DNA from: Escherichia phage vB_EcoM_phAPEC6
DNA length: 64,000 bases
Direction: 5' to 3' (one strand)
Sequence record: MK817115.1
Shown: piece after piece, positions 2,554-62,661 of the stretch
How the letters are laid out: every line of letters starts with the position of its first letter
Position numbering within the stretch: the first letter of the stretch is position 1
Program-made: the position numbers and the translations under genes
Notes under the pieces: generated by a model
What the model saw: only the letters and a program-made list of their open reading frames with translations
Databases searched by the model: none
What the model was told of the DNA's origin: nothing

Positions 2554-3138
2554 TTATTTTGTAATGTTTAGTTTAGAAACGAAGTATTCTTTGGCTTCTT
2601 CATATGTCATTGAAGTATACATAGGATTCCATTTATCGTCAATATCGATAAGTACTTTAACTTCCATTACATCTTCTGGTGTATAGAATTGCCATGTATT
2701 GTGATCTGGCTCATAGTTAGGGTCCAGTACAAAAACCGTACCATCCTGACCATAAACTTCTCCATCCTCTAATAGCTCACGGAAGAAATCTTCTCCAGTA
2801 GTTGGGTCTTCGTATGCATTATAAAAACGAAAAACAACATTCTCAACATCTGTTCGGGTAGTACCATCGTCTTCATCATATTCCACCAAACGGTCCTGAT
2901 GAAATACTAGGTCAATTGCACCAATGCGAGGTTTATTATGTGGAGTTTTGATTTCTTGCTGGGAATTGTAATCAATACGTTCAGTACTGATGAATACTCC
3001 ACTAGGGGTAATTTCAATACCAGACACATTTTCTGGTGAATAGTAAGCGTCACACATGTCATCAATGTGCATGTGCTCATTATACACTTCCATTTCAGGA
3101 TTCTGCAACAACAGTGCTGCTAAGTCTTTTGCTTTCAA
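2554..3138 (-). CDS. hypothetical protein, paralog of 3874..4491
   Basis: 194 aa; N-terminus MKAKDLAALLLQNPEMEVY matches MKSHDLAKLLLSQPNLEIY of 3874..4491; C-terminal TYEEAKEY vs SYDEAIEC. Confidence 0.5.
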   Translation of the reverse strand: MKAKDLAALLLQNPEMEVYNEHMHIDDMCDAYYSPENVSGIEITPSGVFISTERIDYNSQQEIKTPHNKPRIGAIDLVFHQDRLVEYDEDDGTTRTDVENVVFRFYNAYEDPTTGEDFFRELLEDGEVYGQDGTVFVLDPNYEPDHNTWQFYTPEDVMEVKVLIDIDDKWNPMYTSMTYEEAKEYFVSKLNITK

Positions 3139-5441: not shown

Positions 5442-5526
5442 TCACTTCGTTCTCTCGTAACTCAAGAAGTCACTGCGTTTACTTCGTAAACTAGTTCCTT
5501 CTGAAAATGATAATGTACTTTAAAAA

Positions 5527-6096
5527 CTTGACGGGATTTGTTGAGGACTATTACATCCCCCCGCAGGGGAATGAAGGTAATAAAAAAGAGACAATTAAGT
5601 CTCTCTTGACGATGATGGCATCGGATATTATCGAATTGCGAATTTCTCAAATTTTGGACGGATCTTTCTTGTACCAAAATTTAGAGAGCGAAAGCGGGTT
5701 GCTCGGTTTCTCTCTATCGCAGTCATATGCAACGGTCGCTGGTCTTTTCATCAACAGCACTCAGTACTAACTCTATTCGATCAAAGTAGTACTTGTTCTC
5801 AAATTTTGGACGCAACTTTCTTGTAAAAATTGCGTCCGCTATCCTTGAACTCCCTTAGCAAATCTGGTAAGGTGCGAACCTTATACATCTATCTAGGAAC
5901 TCTCTGTATGCTTATCGGAGTTCTTTATACAGCCGTGTCGCCGTGATTCGTGGTCTTACATCGTGTTTGTTTGAATGCCAGTACTCTAACAGGTTTCTTC
6001 TGCTGTTCGCTACAACGGTAAAGCTCATCTATCCTTTACATTTTCAAGAGAAGTAGGTTCTCAGTGTCCATTTTTCAATGTCCGTTGTCATTTTCT
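5527..6096. ncRNA. candidate large structured non-coding element, copy A (paralog of 61208..61740)
   Basis: No conserved ORF; shares blocks with copy B (CATCCCCCCGCAGGGGA, GAAAGCGGGTTGCTC, GTTTCTCTCTATCGC, GCAACGGTCG, TGGTAAGGTGCGA, GGAGTTCTTTATACAGCCG, CTGCTGTTCG); hairpins with conserved stems and divergent loops; strand unresolved. Confidence 0.35.
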
Positions 6097-6103
6097 ATAT
6101 ACA

Positions 6104-6114
6104 TTATATCATTG
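6104..6114 (-). promoter_or_regulatory. extended -10 promoter-like motif TGATATAAT (minus strand), preceded by ATGGGACAT box
   Basis: Plus ATTATATCATT = minus AATGATATAAT; same 11-mer at 61748-61758 and TGATATAAT at 31238-31247. Confidence 0.3.
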
Positions 6115-6131
6115 GAACATATAATGTCCCA

Positions 6132-6940: not shown

Positions 6941-7597
6941 TCAATCATGTTTATTCAATTTCTTCTGTTCTTTTTTCAAAGCTTTCATATGACGACCAAA
7001 CTCTCGAACATGCCATAGATGATCAGTTTCCCATAATTCTTGACGTAACCTACGTTCTTCTAGTAGTTTCGACTTGTCAATGTTATTTTTCTTTTTTTGT
7101 ACATTAAAGAAATTATTCATATGTTCTTGGAGAAGATTACGACCTTTAACTTTCTCAAGAAACTCATCAACTGTTTCAGTTTTATTCGAACGTAGTTGAT
7201 TACATCTGGAGCACATAGTATTAAAGTTTGACTCTAAATCAGGTCCACCCTTAGATGCCAGATGATTATGGTCAACTGTCATTAAAACTTCATAAAGACC
7301 ACATACAGCATATACATTTAAATGTGGTTTACCATATACTGGATCAGAACATAATGAACGTTCAATGCGTACTTCAGTAGCTTCAATCCCACATGCCACG
7401 CATTTTGGATTCTTAACAAAAGTAAGAACTTTTTGTGGGAAATATCGAAAAGTAATACCATTTAAAGTGTAGCGTTTCATCTTAGTACTTCGTTGATTTA
7501 ATTCTTCAAGAAGTGATAATTTTGTCGTATAGTAAACATGATATTTGTTCATTTTATTCCTTGATATTGATTTTAATATCTTTACCTTGTAAATCAC
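6941..7597 (-). CDS. HNH-family endonuclease (free-standing, homing-endonuclease-like)
   Basis: 218 aa; Cys pair CVACG then DHNHLASKGGPDLESNFNTMCSRCN matching the HNH motif; bracketed by terminators. Confidence 0.55.
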   Translation of the reverse strand: MIYKVKILKSISRNKMNKYHVYYTTKLSLLEELNQRSTKMKRYTLNGITFRYFPQKVLTFVKNPKCVACGIEATEVRIERSLCSDPVYGKPHLNVYAVCGLYEVLMTVDHNHLASKGGPDLESNFNTMCSRCNQLRSNKTETVDEFLEKVKGRNLLQEHMNNFFNVQKKKNNIDKSKLLEERRLRQELWETDHLWHVREFGRHMKALKKEQKKLNKHD

Positions 7598-59481: not shown

Positions 59482-60015
59482 TTATTTCCTCATGTATTTT
59501 ATAACGTCTTCAAATAATTGTATTTTTAAGTCCTCGTCATTTCCAGGTAAAAACTCACGAAAACTATCAAAATCTTCATTTTTTGCGAAGTTACGCATTT
59601 GTGTTGAGCTATATTGACTTACATTACGGTCAATACCTGCCTGAATTGCTTTTATACTACAAAAATTATACAACTTACCATTGTACATGTCAAGAGTTTT
59701 TTGAAAAGAATCAATACGGTCAGAACCACAAATGAAAAGAACATCTAAGTACTTTCCATCCAGTTCTCTCATTATATCAAATAGATTGTCTTCTGTGTAG
59801 ATGTTCTCTTGCACTGAAGGATAGAATCCCTCTGTATAATACATTTTTAGTTCAGGTGGGAGTGGGTTTTTTATATTGTCAGTACTGGTGCTTAGATATA
59901 TTTTTAAATCAGCATTGTACTGTTCTTGTAATGTTTTGGCCTTTTCAAAAACTAAACCATGTCCACGATGTACAGGATTAATACGACCAAACGTTAATAC
60001 ACATGTTTCTTTCAT
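59482..60015 (-). CDS. HxGH-type nucleotidyltransferase, likely NMN adenylyltransferase-like
   Basis: 177 aa; FGRINPVHRGH (HxGH) near N-terminus and SSTQMR (ISSTxxR-like) near C-terminus. Confidence 0.5.
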   Translation of the reverse strand: MKETCVLTFGRINPVHRGHGLVFEKAKTLQEQYNADLKIYLSTSTDNIKNPLPPELKMYYTEGFYPSVQENIYTEDNLFDIMRELDGKYLDVLFICGSDRIDSFQKTLDMYNGKLYNFCSIKAIQAGIDRNVSQYSSTQMRNFAKNEDFDSFREFLPGNDEDLKIQLFEDVIKYMRK

Positions 60016-60533
60016 AAATTCTTCATCACCAACCCAAGAGATTTAAGATAATTGATTTTAGCAGTGGTTAAGTACTTATCCAGTACTATCAGACACGAAG
60101 GAAATGGTGCTGAATCTGTTTTCTTATCGGGTTCTTCTGGTATACCAAATCGTAATCTTCCCTTAATAAAACAAATACAATCACATATTTTAGCAGCATA
60201 ATCCTGAAAAGCAATTGTGTCGGTTCTTGAGGGTACAAGAATAACTACAGTTGCCCCGTTATTATATGCATCTACTGCTTTAGATAACCAAGTTTTCAAG
60301 TCACTGTATGGTGGATTCAACCAAACTATATTATTTCCCCAATCCTGTGATAGTGAATCATCTTCTGGAGTGAAAAAATTATCACACAATGCAGTCTCAT
60401 CAACACAAGCAGCATCAAGTGTAAATCCCCATAACTCATCCAAATCTTCAAAGAAATCTTTGGGAGTTGTCCAGTTATCTTTTCCAGTACTGAAATGTAC
60501 TGAATGTTTTTTCGAAGCATCCTTCTTCGACAT
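60012..60533 (-). CDS. phage-type DNA N6-adenine methyltransferase (Dam-like)
   Basis: 173 aa; WGFTLDAAC and NPPY motifs. Confidence 0.5.
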   Translation of the reverse strand: MSKKDASKKHSVHFSTGKDNWTTPKDFFEDLDELWGFTLDAACVDETALCDNFFTPEDDSLSQDWGNNIVWLNPPYSDLKTWLSKAVDAYNNGATVVILVPSRTDTIAFQDYAAKICDCICFIKGRLRFGIPEEPDKKTDSAPFPSCLIVLDKYLTTAKINYLKSLGLVMKNL

Positions 60534-61170: not shown

Positions 61171-61207
61171 GTCTAATTCTACAAGTACTATTTTCTTTTA
61201 ATTAATA

Positions 61208-61740
61208 TTGACGGGGTTTGCTTGAGCATATTTCATCCCCCCGCAGGGGAAAGAACAAAAAAATTTGACGCTGGTGGCCTTCACATAGTTCATATCACGA
61301 ATTCTCTTACGAGACGAAAGCGGGTTGCTCTGTTTCTCTCTATCGCGGTTCTTGTAGCAACGGTCGTCGGTCTTAAACATCCCGACACATAATACAAATA
61401 CCATATGACCAGTACTTGTATTTGATTTCACAAAATTTGGACGCAACTATATTGTATAATTCCGACCGCATATTTCTTATGAAATCTCCCTTAGATAATT
61501 GGTAAGGTGCGATCCTTATATGTCTATCGAGGAACTCTCTTTATCCTATTGGAGTTCTTTATACAGCCGCATTGCCGTGAGTGGTTCAAACTATGCCATC
61601 ATCTAACGGGTTTCATCTGCTGTTCGTACTGAAAGGACTACTCATCTACCCTCTACATTTTCGAGTGGATTAGGCTTTTAATCATTTCCTTATGGGAACC
61701 TTTCAGGATTAAAAAAAGGTGACTAACATATTATGTTGTC
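61208..61740. ncRNA. candidate large structured non-coding element, copy B (paralog of 5527..6096)
   Basis: Same conserved blocks and hairpins as copy A; no conserved ORF; strand unresolved. Confidence 0.35.
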
Positions 61741-61743
61741 ACC
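61711..61743 (-). terminator. rho-independent terminator (long bulged hairpin)
   Basis: GGTGACTAACAT-ATT-ATGTTGTCACC, A-run 61711-61717 on plus. Confidence 0.45.
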
Positions 61744-61747
61744 TTAT

Positions 61748-61758
61748 ATTATATCATT
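61748..61758 (-). promoter_or_regulatory. extended -10 promoter-like motif TGATATAAT (minus strand)
   Basis: Plus ATTATATCATT identical to 6104-6114; directly followed on minus by the hairpin (PeSL-like arrangement). Confidence 0.3.
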
Positions 61759-61773
61759 AACTTATCATTTGTC

Positions 61774-62661
61774 TCAGTTATATTCGGTTTTTTCTGTGAA
61801 ATTTGTTAGTATATCAACACTAAAACTTCGAATAACCTCAATCCTGCTTGGCATGAAACGATGTTTATTTTTAATATACAACTCATCATCTTCAATAAAA
61901 GACGTAAAAATAAATGTCATATCTTCACGTGGAATTTGTAAAATATCACACATTTCATTTGCCGATGCTACTGGTGAATCGTTGTAGTACTGAGAGTATG
62001 CACTAGATTGGCGACCGATTATAATAGAATTTCTGATTAGAAAATTACTACAGTACTGAAAATCTTTGTAGTACTTTTCAATAATGTACGGCATAAGTGC
62101 TTCTTTCACGTCTTCATAACCATTAGTACTATCAATTGCTATACAGTAATCTTCACGTTCTTTTTTCTCATGATGGTAATCATAAACATACTCAAAGAAT
62201 GAATTTTTATTTAATGAATCATTTAAACCAACTGACCCACTATAGTATGATTTTCTATCATTCATTCGATCATCTGGGCATGATGCATACATAGAAGTGT
62301 CATGTGATGATGTACCAATATAAATTTTCTTAGTAATATGATTATACGCTATGTAATCATAATCTTGAACTCCAGTCAGCATTAACTGGAACATTAAATC
62401 ATCAGGAACATCAATTAACGGGTACTCAAACTTCGAATATCTACTGCGGCAGAAGTTCTTTTCAAATGCTCGGTATGCGATAAAATCTTTTAGATTTTTA
62501 CAAGATTCATGCTCATGAGCACTACTGCTACGTACATTGACATTAGTCGATGTGCAATATCCATCCGAATCTTCGGTGAAGTTACCAGCATAATCCTTAT
62601 TGTAGTCAACGATTAGATAAAGTTTCATACATCTCCAGACAAAAAAAGGACGAGATAACAA
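61774..62661 (-). CDS. hypothetical protein
   Basis: 295 aa ORF. Confidence 0.5.
   Translation of the reverse strand: MLSRPFFVWRCMKLYLIVDYNKDYAGNFTEDSDGYCTSTNVNVRSSSAHEHESCKNLKDFIAYRAFEKNFCRSRYSKFEYPLIDVPDDLMFQLMLTGVQDYDYIAYNHITKKIYIGTSSHDTSMYASCPDDRMNDRKSYYSGSVGLNDSLNKNSFFEYVYDYHHEKKEREDYCIAIDSTNGYEDVKEALMPYIIEKYYKDFQYCSNFLIRNSIIIGRQSSAYSQYYNDSPVASANEMCDILQIPREDMTFIFTSFIEDDELYIKNKHRFMPSRIEVIRSFSVDILTNFTEKTEYN

Follow-up and report, generated by a model that had tools for sequence, protein, structure and literature searches.

The 64,000-nucleotide (nt) stretch of Escherichia phage vB_EcoM_phAPEC6 analysed here (sequence record MK817115.1; hereafter the window) holds two diverged copies, A and B, of a non-coding element, each of which, judging from its sequence and those of its homologs, is probably an independent gene for a large structured non-coding RNA (ncRNA) on the minus strand of the window. 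A first-pass annotation had proposed a duplicated non-coding element with the character of a conserved structured RNA. The non-coding duplication was borne out by BLASTN, by a MAFFT alignment in which the conserved blocks follow the order originally listed, and by the lack of a shared open reading frame (ORF). The structured RNA was borne out by covariation among 26 to 83 distinct homologs, a multi-helix pseudoknotted fold, the lack of a coding signal and the lack of a matching Rfam family. Sequence comparison confirms A and B as paralogs of a previously undescribed RNA family, whose RNA is predicted to form 15 or more helices and no fewer than four contacts of pseudoknot type. The two units, identified by homology, alignments and core-model match, are:

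5528 to 6130, minus strand: copy A, whole unit (predicted promoter, structured RNA of ~517 nt, terminator-like hairpin, 3' conserved hairpin and block)
61208 to 61775, minus strand: copy B, whole unit

Two paralogous copies in the window

BLASTN aligned copies A and B at 74% identity over 388 nt (E 7e-49) and returned a second match, a 45-nt block that is 89% identical; the MAFFT alignment matched the copies end to end with identical blocks in a common order. Neither BLASTN nor the core-model search found a third copy in the 64-kilobase (kb) window. The region of copy A (5442-6131) is 100% identical in Salmonella and E. coli jumbo phages of the PBECO4/121Q group (Asteriusvirus). The element is richer in G+C (0.41-0.42) than its surroundings (~0.25-0.36), as had been noticed at first reading. 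The internal duplication claimed for copy A is also real: the block AAATTTTGGACG...TTGTA is confined to the elements and occurs in A at 5649-5673 and 5801-5825 and once in B at 61432-61456, against a chance expectation of 0.01.

The longest ORFs over the two copies lie on opposite strands (5507-5770, plus strand, over A; 61198-61446, minus strand, over B). No ORF common to A and B was found, nor any sign of a shared protein-coding gene or pseudogene, and the indels between their conserved blocks are of many lengths and out of frame. Tiny hypothetical ORFs of 29-68 amino acids (aa) have been annotated across the RNA gene in other phages, for example at 7021-7587 of locus L200 (phage JP4 CDS0603-0606) and at 2858-3064 of locus L198 (RaK2 ORF245). 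Such ORFs vary from record to record and are almost certainly spurious calls, so that many GenBank records would need correction at these RNA loci.

Fold of the core domain

The core domain consists of five nested helices (H11, H13, H15, H16 and H17) and two crossing helices, H12, in which the loop of H11 pairs with the 3' tail, and H14, in which GUUGC pairs with GCAAC. Its parts in the window are listed here, together with a ~25-nt module that is found either at the tip of H17 (position 1), or between the GGGAG block and H11 (position 2), or, as in copy A, at both sites.

5627 to 5796, minus strand: copy A core domain (pair counts, covariance model R1)
5786-5793/5763-5770, minus strand: copy A H11; 5775-5781/5630-5636, pseudoknot H12
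5754-5758/5738-5742, minus strand: copy A H13; 5729-5733/5698-5702, pseudoknot H14
5717-5721/5637-5641, minus strand: copy A H15; 5710-5714/5690-5694, H16 (central G·U); 5684-5688/5644-5648, H17
5649 to 5673, minus strand: copy A module, position 1, at the H17 tip
5801 to 5825, minus strand: copy A ~25-nt module, position 2 (stem closed by 5847-5850/5797-5800)
61286 to 61425, minus strand: copy B core domain, H11 to H17 including both pseudoknots; GUAA tetraloop at the H17 tip
61432 to 61456, minus strand: copy B module, position 2 only

In a MAFFT alignment of 26 core sequences, 91.8% of the cells at paired positions could pair, against 74.8% after shuffling (0/500), and 31 of the 40 pairs showed compensatory changes. 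A model-guided alignment (A5; 144 positions, 83 distinct sequences) gave 95.0% against 68.2% (0/500), with compensatory changes in 35 of 40 pairs, a covariation score of 0.72 versus 0.21, and only 36-49% pairing in slid controls; alignments A3 and A4 agreed with A5 on the core pairing. These shuffle controls take no account of phylogeny. Model-guided alignments lean toward the structure that was modelled, but the pseudoknot helices and the counts from MAFFT alone agree all the same. Because the covariance model omits both H12 and H14, the alignment was not fitted to them, and in the 83 sequences these two helices are 96% and 100% paired, with seven and three covarying pairs, respectively. In members that lack the module at the H17 tip, this tip is often a GNRA tetraloop.

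The first-pass annotation had also suggested a compensatory change in one helix, written as CAG..CTG in A and CGG..TCG in B. Both substitutions are indeed compensated, although the partners had been misassigned: position 5721 pairs with 5637 in H15, and 5739-5741 pair with 5755-5757 in H13.

Fold outside the core

On either side of the core the following parts were recognised in the two copies.

5924 to 6096, minus strand: copy A 5' domain (pair counts on the 26-copy alignment A2; detection in 82 sequences)
6081-6088/6012-6019, minus strand: copy A H1; 6022-6024/6009-6011, H1'
6046-6050/6032-6036, minus strand: copy A H3, with conserved GAAAAUGUA loop
6002-6006/5929-5933, minus strand: copy A H4; 5989-5992/5941-5944, H5
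5845 to 5923, minus strand: copy A middle region (covariation of H7 and PK3)
5897-5903/5917-5923, minus strand: copy A hairpin H7; 5868-5872/5879-5883, hairpin H8; 5936-5938/5885-5887, PK3
5850-5858, minus strand: copy A invariant CUAAGGGAG block
5580 to 5604, minus strand: copy A terminator-like hairpin AGAGAC/GUCUCU with U6 run (covarying stem, 96% paired)
5552 to 5575, minus strand: copy A conserved hairpin UUCAU-U-CCCC-UGC-GGGG-GG-AUGAA (only C-G to U·G variation in the CCCC/GGGG stem)
5528 to 5541, minus strand: copy A 3' conserved block CAAAUCCCGUCAAG, holding the second CGUCAR motif (A2; the first is at 5607-5612)
61486 to 61741, minus strand: copy B 5' domain and middle hairpins (pair counts, sequence reading)
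61699-61706/61629-61636, minus strand: copy B H1; 61619-61623/61563-61567, H4
61532-61538/61551-61557, minus strand: copy B H7; 61503-61507/61514-61518, H8; 61486-61494, GGGAG block
61258 to 61282, minus strand: copy B hairpin region, followed directly by AAAUUUUUUUG, with no separate terminator hairpin (read from sequence; the register of this hairpin varies within the family)
61208 to 61255, minus strand: copy B C4/G6 hairpin (61232-61255) and 3' block CAAACCCCGUCAAU (61208-61221)

In A2, helices H1, H3, H4, H5, H7, H8, the terminator-like H20 and the C4/G6 hairpin were 90.3% paired against 76.6% after shuffling (0/500), and 28 of the 49 pairs outside the core were compensatory. H1', which brackets the 3' strand of H1, and PK3, which joins 5936-5938 with 5885-5887 and crosses H4, are each 100% paired with two covarying pairs, and all seven pairs of H7 covary. 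H7 and H8 are the two hairpins whose stems had at first reading been seen to persist while their loops changed. The helices of the 5' domain were detected independently in 82 sequences, and the folding z-score of copy A was -3.3. The C4/G6 stem varies only from C-G to U·G (14 G·U and no A·C in the minus sense). Long-range GGGAG/CUCCC and GAUAG/CUAUC pairings were also considered and were rejected, their covariation being unconvincing.

Two CGUCAR motifs are found in 66 of 82 members. In the window these pairs (5607-5612 with 5529-5534; 61266-61271 with 61209-61214) flank the terminator/C4-hairpin region, and the last base of both motifs switches between A and G together from lineage to lineage; the pair may be a paired binding or processing site.

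Distribution of the family

The first-pass annotation counted two copies in the phage. The window itself does hold two, but there are actually four to five per genome, and the further copies that it proposed to seek in related phages were found. BLAST returned diverged matches in 71 records of phages whose hosts belong to nine genera (Escherichia, Salmonella, Klebsiella, Erwinia, Yersinia, Cronobacter, Pectobacterium, Serratia and Xanthomonas), at four to five separate places per phage genome, and the paralogs within a genome have diverged by ~30%. A 22-base core pattern identified 82 metagenome loci, typically four to five per contig of 350-370 kb; two pattern scans of IMG/VR recovered, among others, all four copies of 121Q and five each from GAP32 and CBB. 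No match of the 22-base pattern scored below 74 bits with R1, the covariance model of the core, which matched copy A at 5628-5796 (minus strand, 137 bits) and copy B at 61287-61425 (minus strand, 111 bits). RaK2 and Xanthomonas phage XaC1, both absent from the seed, scored 113 and 91 bits over the full core model.

The family is essentially missing from bacteria and archaea: in 100,044 of their species genomes the 22-base pattern had a single match. This match (locus L283, 7870-8025) lies on a 185-kb contig, NZ_JAMGZK010000045.1, of Silvania hatchlandensis H19S6 (Enterobacteriaceae). Since its score equals that of a copy from a metagenomic phage (L230), the contig is probably that of a jumbo phage in a bacterial assembly.

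Comparison with known RNAs

A covariance-model scan for introns, GOLLD, ROOL, transfer-messenger RNA (tmRNA) and RNase P had been suggested at first reading. Using Rfam 15 we found no match to GOLLD, ROOL, group I or II introns, RNase P or tmRNA and no match above gathering thresholds in the whole window; relaxed searches gave only noise at E<=10 for copy A and at E<=1 for four divergent members. ARAGORN found no transfer RNA (tRNA) or tmRNA in the 64-kb window. In the genome papers on these phages the element goes unmentioned, and our literature searches on the transcriptomes and ncRNAs of the group found no description of it.

In kind, though not by homology, the element is closest to the GOLLD/ROOL group of large, ornate RNAs of bacteria and phages, together with the long ncRNAs of ICP1, phage K and PA5oct. 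As with GOLLD and ROOL, the RNA is several hundred nucleotides long (>400 nt), multi-domain, carried by phages, and built of many helices and pseudoknots that are supported by strong covariation, and it would be a stand-alone and probably abundant transcript. It differs from them in its carriers, which are lytic jumbo phages of the Rak2-like type that infect Enterobacterales and Xanthomonas, and in having four to five diverged, regularly spaced paralogs per genome. In addition, GOLLD and ROOL often adjoin tRNA genes, whereas the window has none, and the nearest case is a pseudo-tRNA ~3 kb from the element in RaK2. Long ncRNAs of lytic phages include an ICP1 transcript of ~800 nt, ncRNA001-004 of PA5oct and the long ncRNAs of phage K (PMC7567579, PMC7318152, PMC9241854). 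Like the present element these are intergenic units without ORFs, 0.2-0.8 kb long, and occur in large lytic phages, but they were defined by expression, whereas the element is defined by conserved structure alone. The PA5oct ncRNAs were rejected as relatives: nhmmer returned nothing at E<=10 for homology to ncRNA001-004, and the best hit of the core model on PA5oct with filters off (17 bits) was inside a coding sequence. A published survey lists ~10,000 viral candidate structured RNAs, each of at most 151 nt (PMC10690425).

Strand, predicted promoter and ends of the RNA

The predicted promoters, and a hairpin that overlaps one of them, are:

6125 to 6130, minus strand: copy A -35-like hexamer GGGACA (family TGAAAC/TGGAAC/TGGGAC; promoter scan, family tally)
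6103 to 6111, minus strand: copy A extended -10 TGATATAAT (promoter scan; predicted start near 6096)
61748 to 61775, minus strand: copy B promoter, GAGACA (61770-61775), 16-nt spacer and TGATATAAT (61748-61756) (promoter scan; predicted start near 61741)
61711 to 61745, minus strand: copy B strong hairpin AAGGUGAC/GUCACCUU with U-run (read from sequence; overlaps the predicted start)

The first-pass annotation had left the strand ambiguous, setting minus-strand TGATATAAT motifs against stems that close with G-T pairs on the plus strand only. Both observations were correct. The motifs belong to the best promoter-like sites in both copies (GGGACA or GAGACA, a 16-nt spacer and TG-TATAAT), and the plus-strand closures exist, at helix ends, at invariant positions or in competition with a proven pseudoknot. 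The ambiguity itself does not hold, and the minus strand is supported as the RNA strand by the layout of the predicted promoter and putative terminators, by the counts of G·U pairs and by the GNRA loops.

A TGnTATAAT-like motif occurs in 72 of 82 members, usually with TGAAAC, TGGAAC or TGGGAC upstream, and this motif and its conserved position correspond to a predicted sigma-70-type extended -10 promoter of the TGAAACG -35 class, in which the -35-like hexamer lies 16-17 nt upstream. Of the promoter classes described for CBB and GAP32 it agrees with the second, in which a classic -10 is combined with a TGAAACG -35 (PMC5259590), and in the record of fHe-Yen9-03 the depositors annotated -35 and -10 signals on the minus-equivalent strand. 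At most loci a terminator of the upstream gene precedes the promoter, and a covarying hairpin with a U-run follows the structured region. A covarying terminator-like hairpin of 6-8 base pairs with U6-7 is present in 16 of the 26 copies of A2 and missing from the other 10; 63 of 73 members have a U-rich tract between the core and the C4 hairpin. We place the ends of copy A at ~6096 (start), ~5580 (end of the U-run) and 5528 (end of the 3' block), and those of copy B at ~61741, ~61258 and 61208; all of these positions are predictions. The hairpin at 61711-61745 can terminate the transcript of the upstream 295-aa gene and is read as the terminator of that gene; since it overlaps the predicted start, the transcript of copy B itself would lack the 5' arm of this hairpin. 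It begins 3 nt past the -10 of copy B, and such overlap of promoter and terminator recurs in several orthologs.

Among internal pairs of the proven helices read in the minus sense, G·U outnumbered A·C by 190 to 48 in the core and by 65 to 32 elsewhere. At the centre of H16 the 83 sequences have G·U 46 times, A-U 24 times, U-A 11 times, G-C twice and A·C never. The A·C cases fall at helix ends or in an extension of H15 that competes with pseudoknot H12. GNRA loops at the module-less H17 tip were found in 14 sequences in the minus sense and in none in the plus sense. It is very unlikely that the functional RNA is the plus strand or that both strands function: read in the plus sense H16 would hold a central A·C in 46 of 83 sequences, internal G·U pairs and GNRA loops are seen in the minus sense only, the plus-sense extension of H15 competes with the covarying H12, and no conserved plus-strand promoter was found, while it is the minus strand that carries the conserved predicted promoter and the putative terminators on either side. 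What speaks for the plus strand is better folding of H5/H6, H7 and H8 in that sense, the extension of several helices through G·U in that sense only, and the location of the genes flanking one paralog class, that of copy C, on the plus-equivalent strand.

Several observations count against our reading of each element as an independent gene for a minus-strand RNA. The terminator-like stems are weak, with 2-3 G-C pairs, and an automatic scan called none of them; the hairpin of copy A went unreported because its stem has fewer than three G-C pairs. The C4/G6 hairpin lies past the U-run and is under RNA-level constraint, so that either the 3' end is uncertain or termination is leaky. Comparison of the strands by folding energy was indecisive: RNAalifold gave -140 and -147 for the two strands, the minimum free energy of the whole element was better on the minus strand in 16 of 26 cases, and per-helix duplex energies were no more decisive. 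A sense-symmetric stem finder gave 139 versus 131 because helices were extended through invariant end positions, and only structure-guided alignments and internal pairs resolved the strand. The plus-sense G·U extensions of several proven helices lie at invariant positions. H19 was rejected as a conserved helix, its register differing among lineages (63% paired). PA5oct provides the only related transcriptome, and its ncRNAs are not relatives. Finally, the function of the RNA and any partner are entirely inferred.

A feature that acts as DNA only (a recombination scar, a decayed pseudogene, a repeated regulatory region or a DNA secondary structure) is strongly disfavoured. The element is a dispersed repeat, part of one copy being labelled 'repeat_region' in one GenBank record, and the CGTCAR direct repeats could be protein-binding sites. 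Such a feature is at odds with the dozens of compensatory double substitutions, which extend over long range and include the crossing helices, with the strand-specific asymmetry of G·U and A·C and the GNRA loops, and with the lack of a shared ORF, the out-of-frame indels and the conservation over nine host genera.

Genomic context and spacing of the copies

Of the 43 copies with enough flanking sequence, 33 have co-oriented genes downstream. The exception is a class formed by copy C of 121Q and UE-S1 and its orthologs in CBB and metagenomic phages, in which the predicted promoter and an endonuclease VII gene point away from each other, and the RNA and a gene of ~285 aa run toward each other; copy C adjoins genes for endonuclease VII and a recombination endonuclease. 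The convergence of this class on its downstream genes indicates that the element is a self-contained gene and not merely a 5' leader. A cis-acting leader, which by processive antitermination (as HK022 put or Bacillus EAR) or signal-sensing attenuation would act on the polymerase that transcribes it or respond to a signal and so control read-through past the hairpin and U-run into long arrays of co-directional genes, is unlikely in our view. The element does resemble put and EAR in being a promoter-proximal structured RNA with terminator-like hairpins and, usually, a long co-directional gene array. The order of promoter, structured RNA, hairpin with U-run, conserved RNA hairpins and genes would suit such a leader, the RNA-level constraint on the C4/G6 hairpin past the U-run implies read-through, and the spacing of the copies could mirror long transcription domains. 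However, action in cis on a co-oriented downstream operon does not fit the copy C class, which is conserved in 121Q, UE-S1, CBB and metagenomic relatives as convergent and without a co-oriented downstream gene. The terminator hairpin, absent from 10 of 26 copies, is optional, the element is 5-8 times larger than put or EAR and far more complex than known antiterminator RNAs, and it has no sequence or structure similarity to them or to any Rfam cis-regulatory family.

Neighbouring proteins differ among the paralogs and are mostly of unknown function, and on this ground a conserved adjacent protein partner was rejected. An association with sigma factors was likewise rejected: the RaK2 element follows a putative sigma gene, but copy B is preceded by a 295-aa ORF that is unrelated to it by BLASTP (E 2.5) and that had no Pfam match. 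Copy B is followed by genes for a Dam-type N6-adenine methyltransferase (60012-60533, minus strand) and a cytidylyltransferase-like protein (59482-60015, minus strand). The same downstream order of Dam methylase and cytidylyltransferase accompanies a copy in XaC1 (L199), from which we conclude that the paralogs are ancient and have held their positions. Upstream of copy A, at a distance of 0.8 kb, there is an HNH endonuclease ORF (6941-7597, minus strand; Pfam HNH, E 1.3e-5) that does not accompany the other copies. At loci such as L009, L005, L020 and L081, a small covarying hairpin, CAUUC-GAA-GAAUG, with variants CAUAC/GUAUG, CUAAC/GUUAG and CAAUC-GUAA-GAUUG, is found ~100-130 nt beyond the element, read in the RNA sense. 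A hairpin of this type precedes the downstream start codon by 20-40 nt in many paralogs and is absent from copy A.

By contig coordinates and model matches, all copies within a genome are on one strand, which alone is unremarkable because most genes share that strand. Paralogs hold syntenic positions across genera. Genomes with five copies have 52-85 kb between neighbouring copies (the GAP32 copies are at 35, 99, 178, 262 and 341 kb), and the XaC1 copies are ~68 kb apart. Compared with random placement on a circle, this spacing has P≈0.0002-0.005 per five-copy genome in GAP32, CBB and contigs Ga0164306_10000001, Ga0308168_1000032 and Ga0308169_10000037 (loci L097-L101, L117-L120 with L020, L248-L252, L261-L265 and L275-L279), but, since the genomes are related and syntenic, it amounts in effect to a single observation. 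Four-copy E. coli phages such as 121Q are less regular (P≈0.03-0.05).

These placements bear on the possibility, which we regard as rather doubtful, that each element is an origin module, whose structured transcript would form a persistent RNA-DNA hybrid or primer near its 3' end, giving several evenly spaced initiation sites per 350-kb genome. The hybrid would lie in the region of the C4/G6 hairpin, the CGUCAR repeats and AT-rich DNA. T4 oriF and oriG consist of a middle promoter and an unwinding element, and ColE1 RNA II is a structured RNA of ~555 nt. The present element resembles these in its predicted promoter-driven transcript of ~0.5 kb and in the G-run/C-run element near its 3' end; with RNA II it would share the importance of the fold, and with T4 that of position and the several sites per genome. 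Origins would be consistent with the co-orientation, quasi-regular gaps and synteny of the copies, with the conserved block and two CGUCAR repeats past the U-run, and with the endonuclease genes beside copy C. The promoter class of the element has, moreover, been reported upstream of DNA-synthesis genes in CBB (PMC5259590). On the other hand, nothing in the sequence demonstrates initiation, hybrid formation or processing by RNase H, the cumulative GC skew has no inflection at either copy of the window, and the regularity of spacing is subject to the reservations given above. To our knowledge the T4 origins are not homologous to one another and have no need of a tertiary fold, and a fold with four pseudoknots is not known as a requirement of T4-type origins.

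Proposed action and significance

Returning to the independent RNA gene, which we favour, each copy would be transcribed from its own predicted promoter (a -35 of TGRAAC type, separated by 16 nt from an extended -10, TGnTATAAT), insulated from upstream transcription by the upstream terminator where one is seen. The transcript would be ~480-520 nt long, or ~570 nt with a 3' extension, and the fold would be followed by a hairpin and/or a U-rich tract and then by the conserved C4/G6 hairpin and the CGUCAR block. The molecule would act as a folded RNA, in which invariant junction nucleotides and a swappable tip, either GNRA or the ~25-nt module, build a defined three-dimensional structure. The conserved fold, invariant junctions and interchangeable tips point to a folded RNA or ribonucleoprotein that may bind a protein or a nucleic acid as its partner. 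That ancient paralogs are placed regularly and in synteny suggests action tied to genome position. Our best guess is thus a stable RNA or ribonucleoprotein made during infection, which would act in connection with its own locus or place in the genome rather than as a regulator of the gene next to it.

New large RNAs with a complex tertiary fold are seldom found, and of the earlier ones RNase P, group I and II introns, tmRNA, OLE and GOLLD/ROOL each opened new biochemistry. The present family offers an unusually good starting dataset, with more than 80 distinct sequences, near-saturating covariation and four pseudoknots, and it is directly testable, since the element is found in cultivable phages of E. 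coli, Salmonella and Klebsiella that are under development for therapy. Four to five ancient paralogs at regular intervals suggest a function tied to replication, transcription or organisation of the 350-kb chromosome. We tentatively raise the idea that the RNAs are position-dependent modules of genome function, five co-oriented, evenly spaced and self-contained units, each RNA acting at its own locus. Were this so, the modules might prime or license replication at multiple origins, or organise the 350-kb chromosome into domains of ~70 kb, and would represent an RNA-based genome architecture of a kind not described for any phage.

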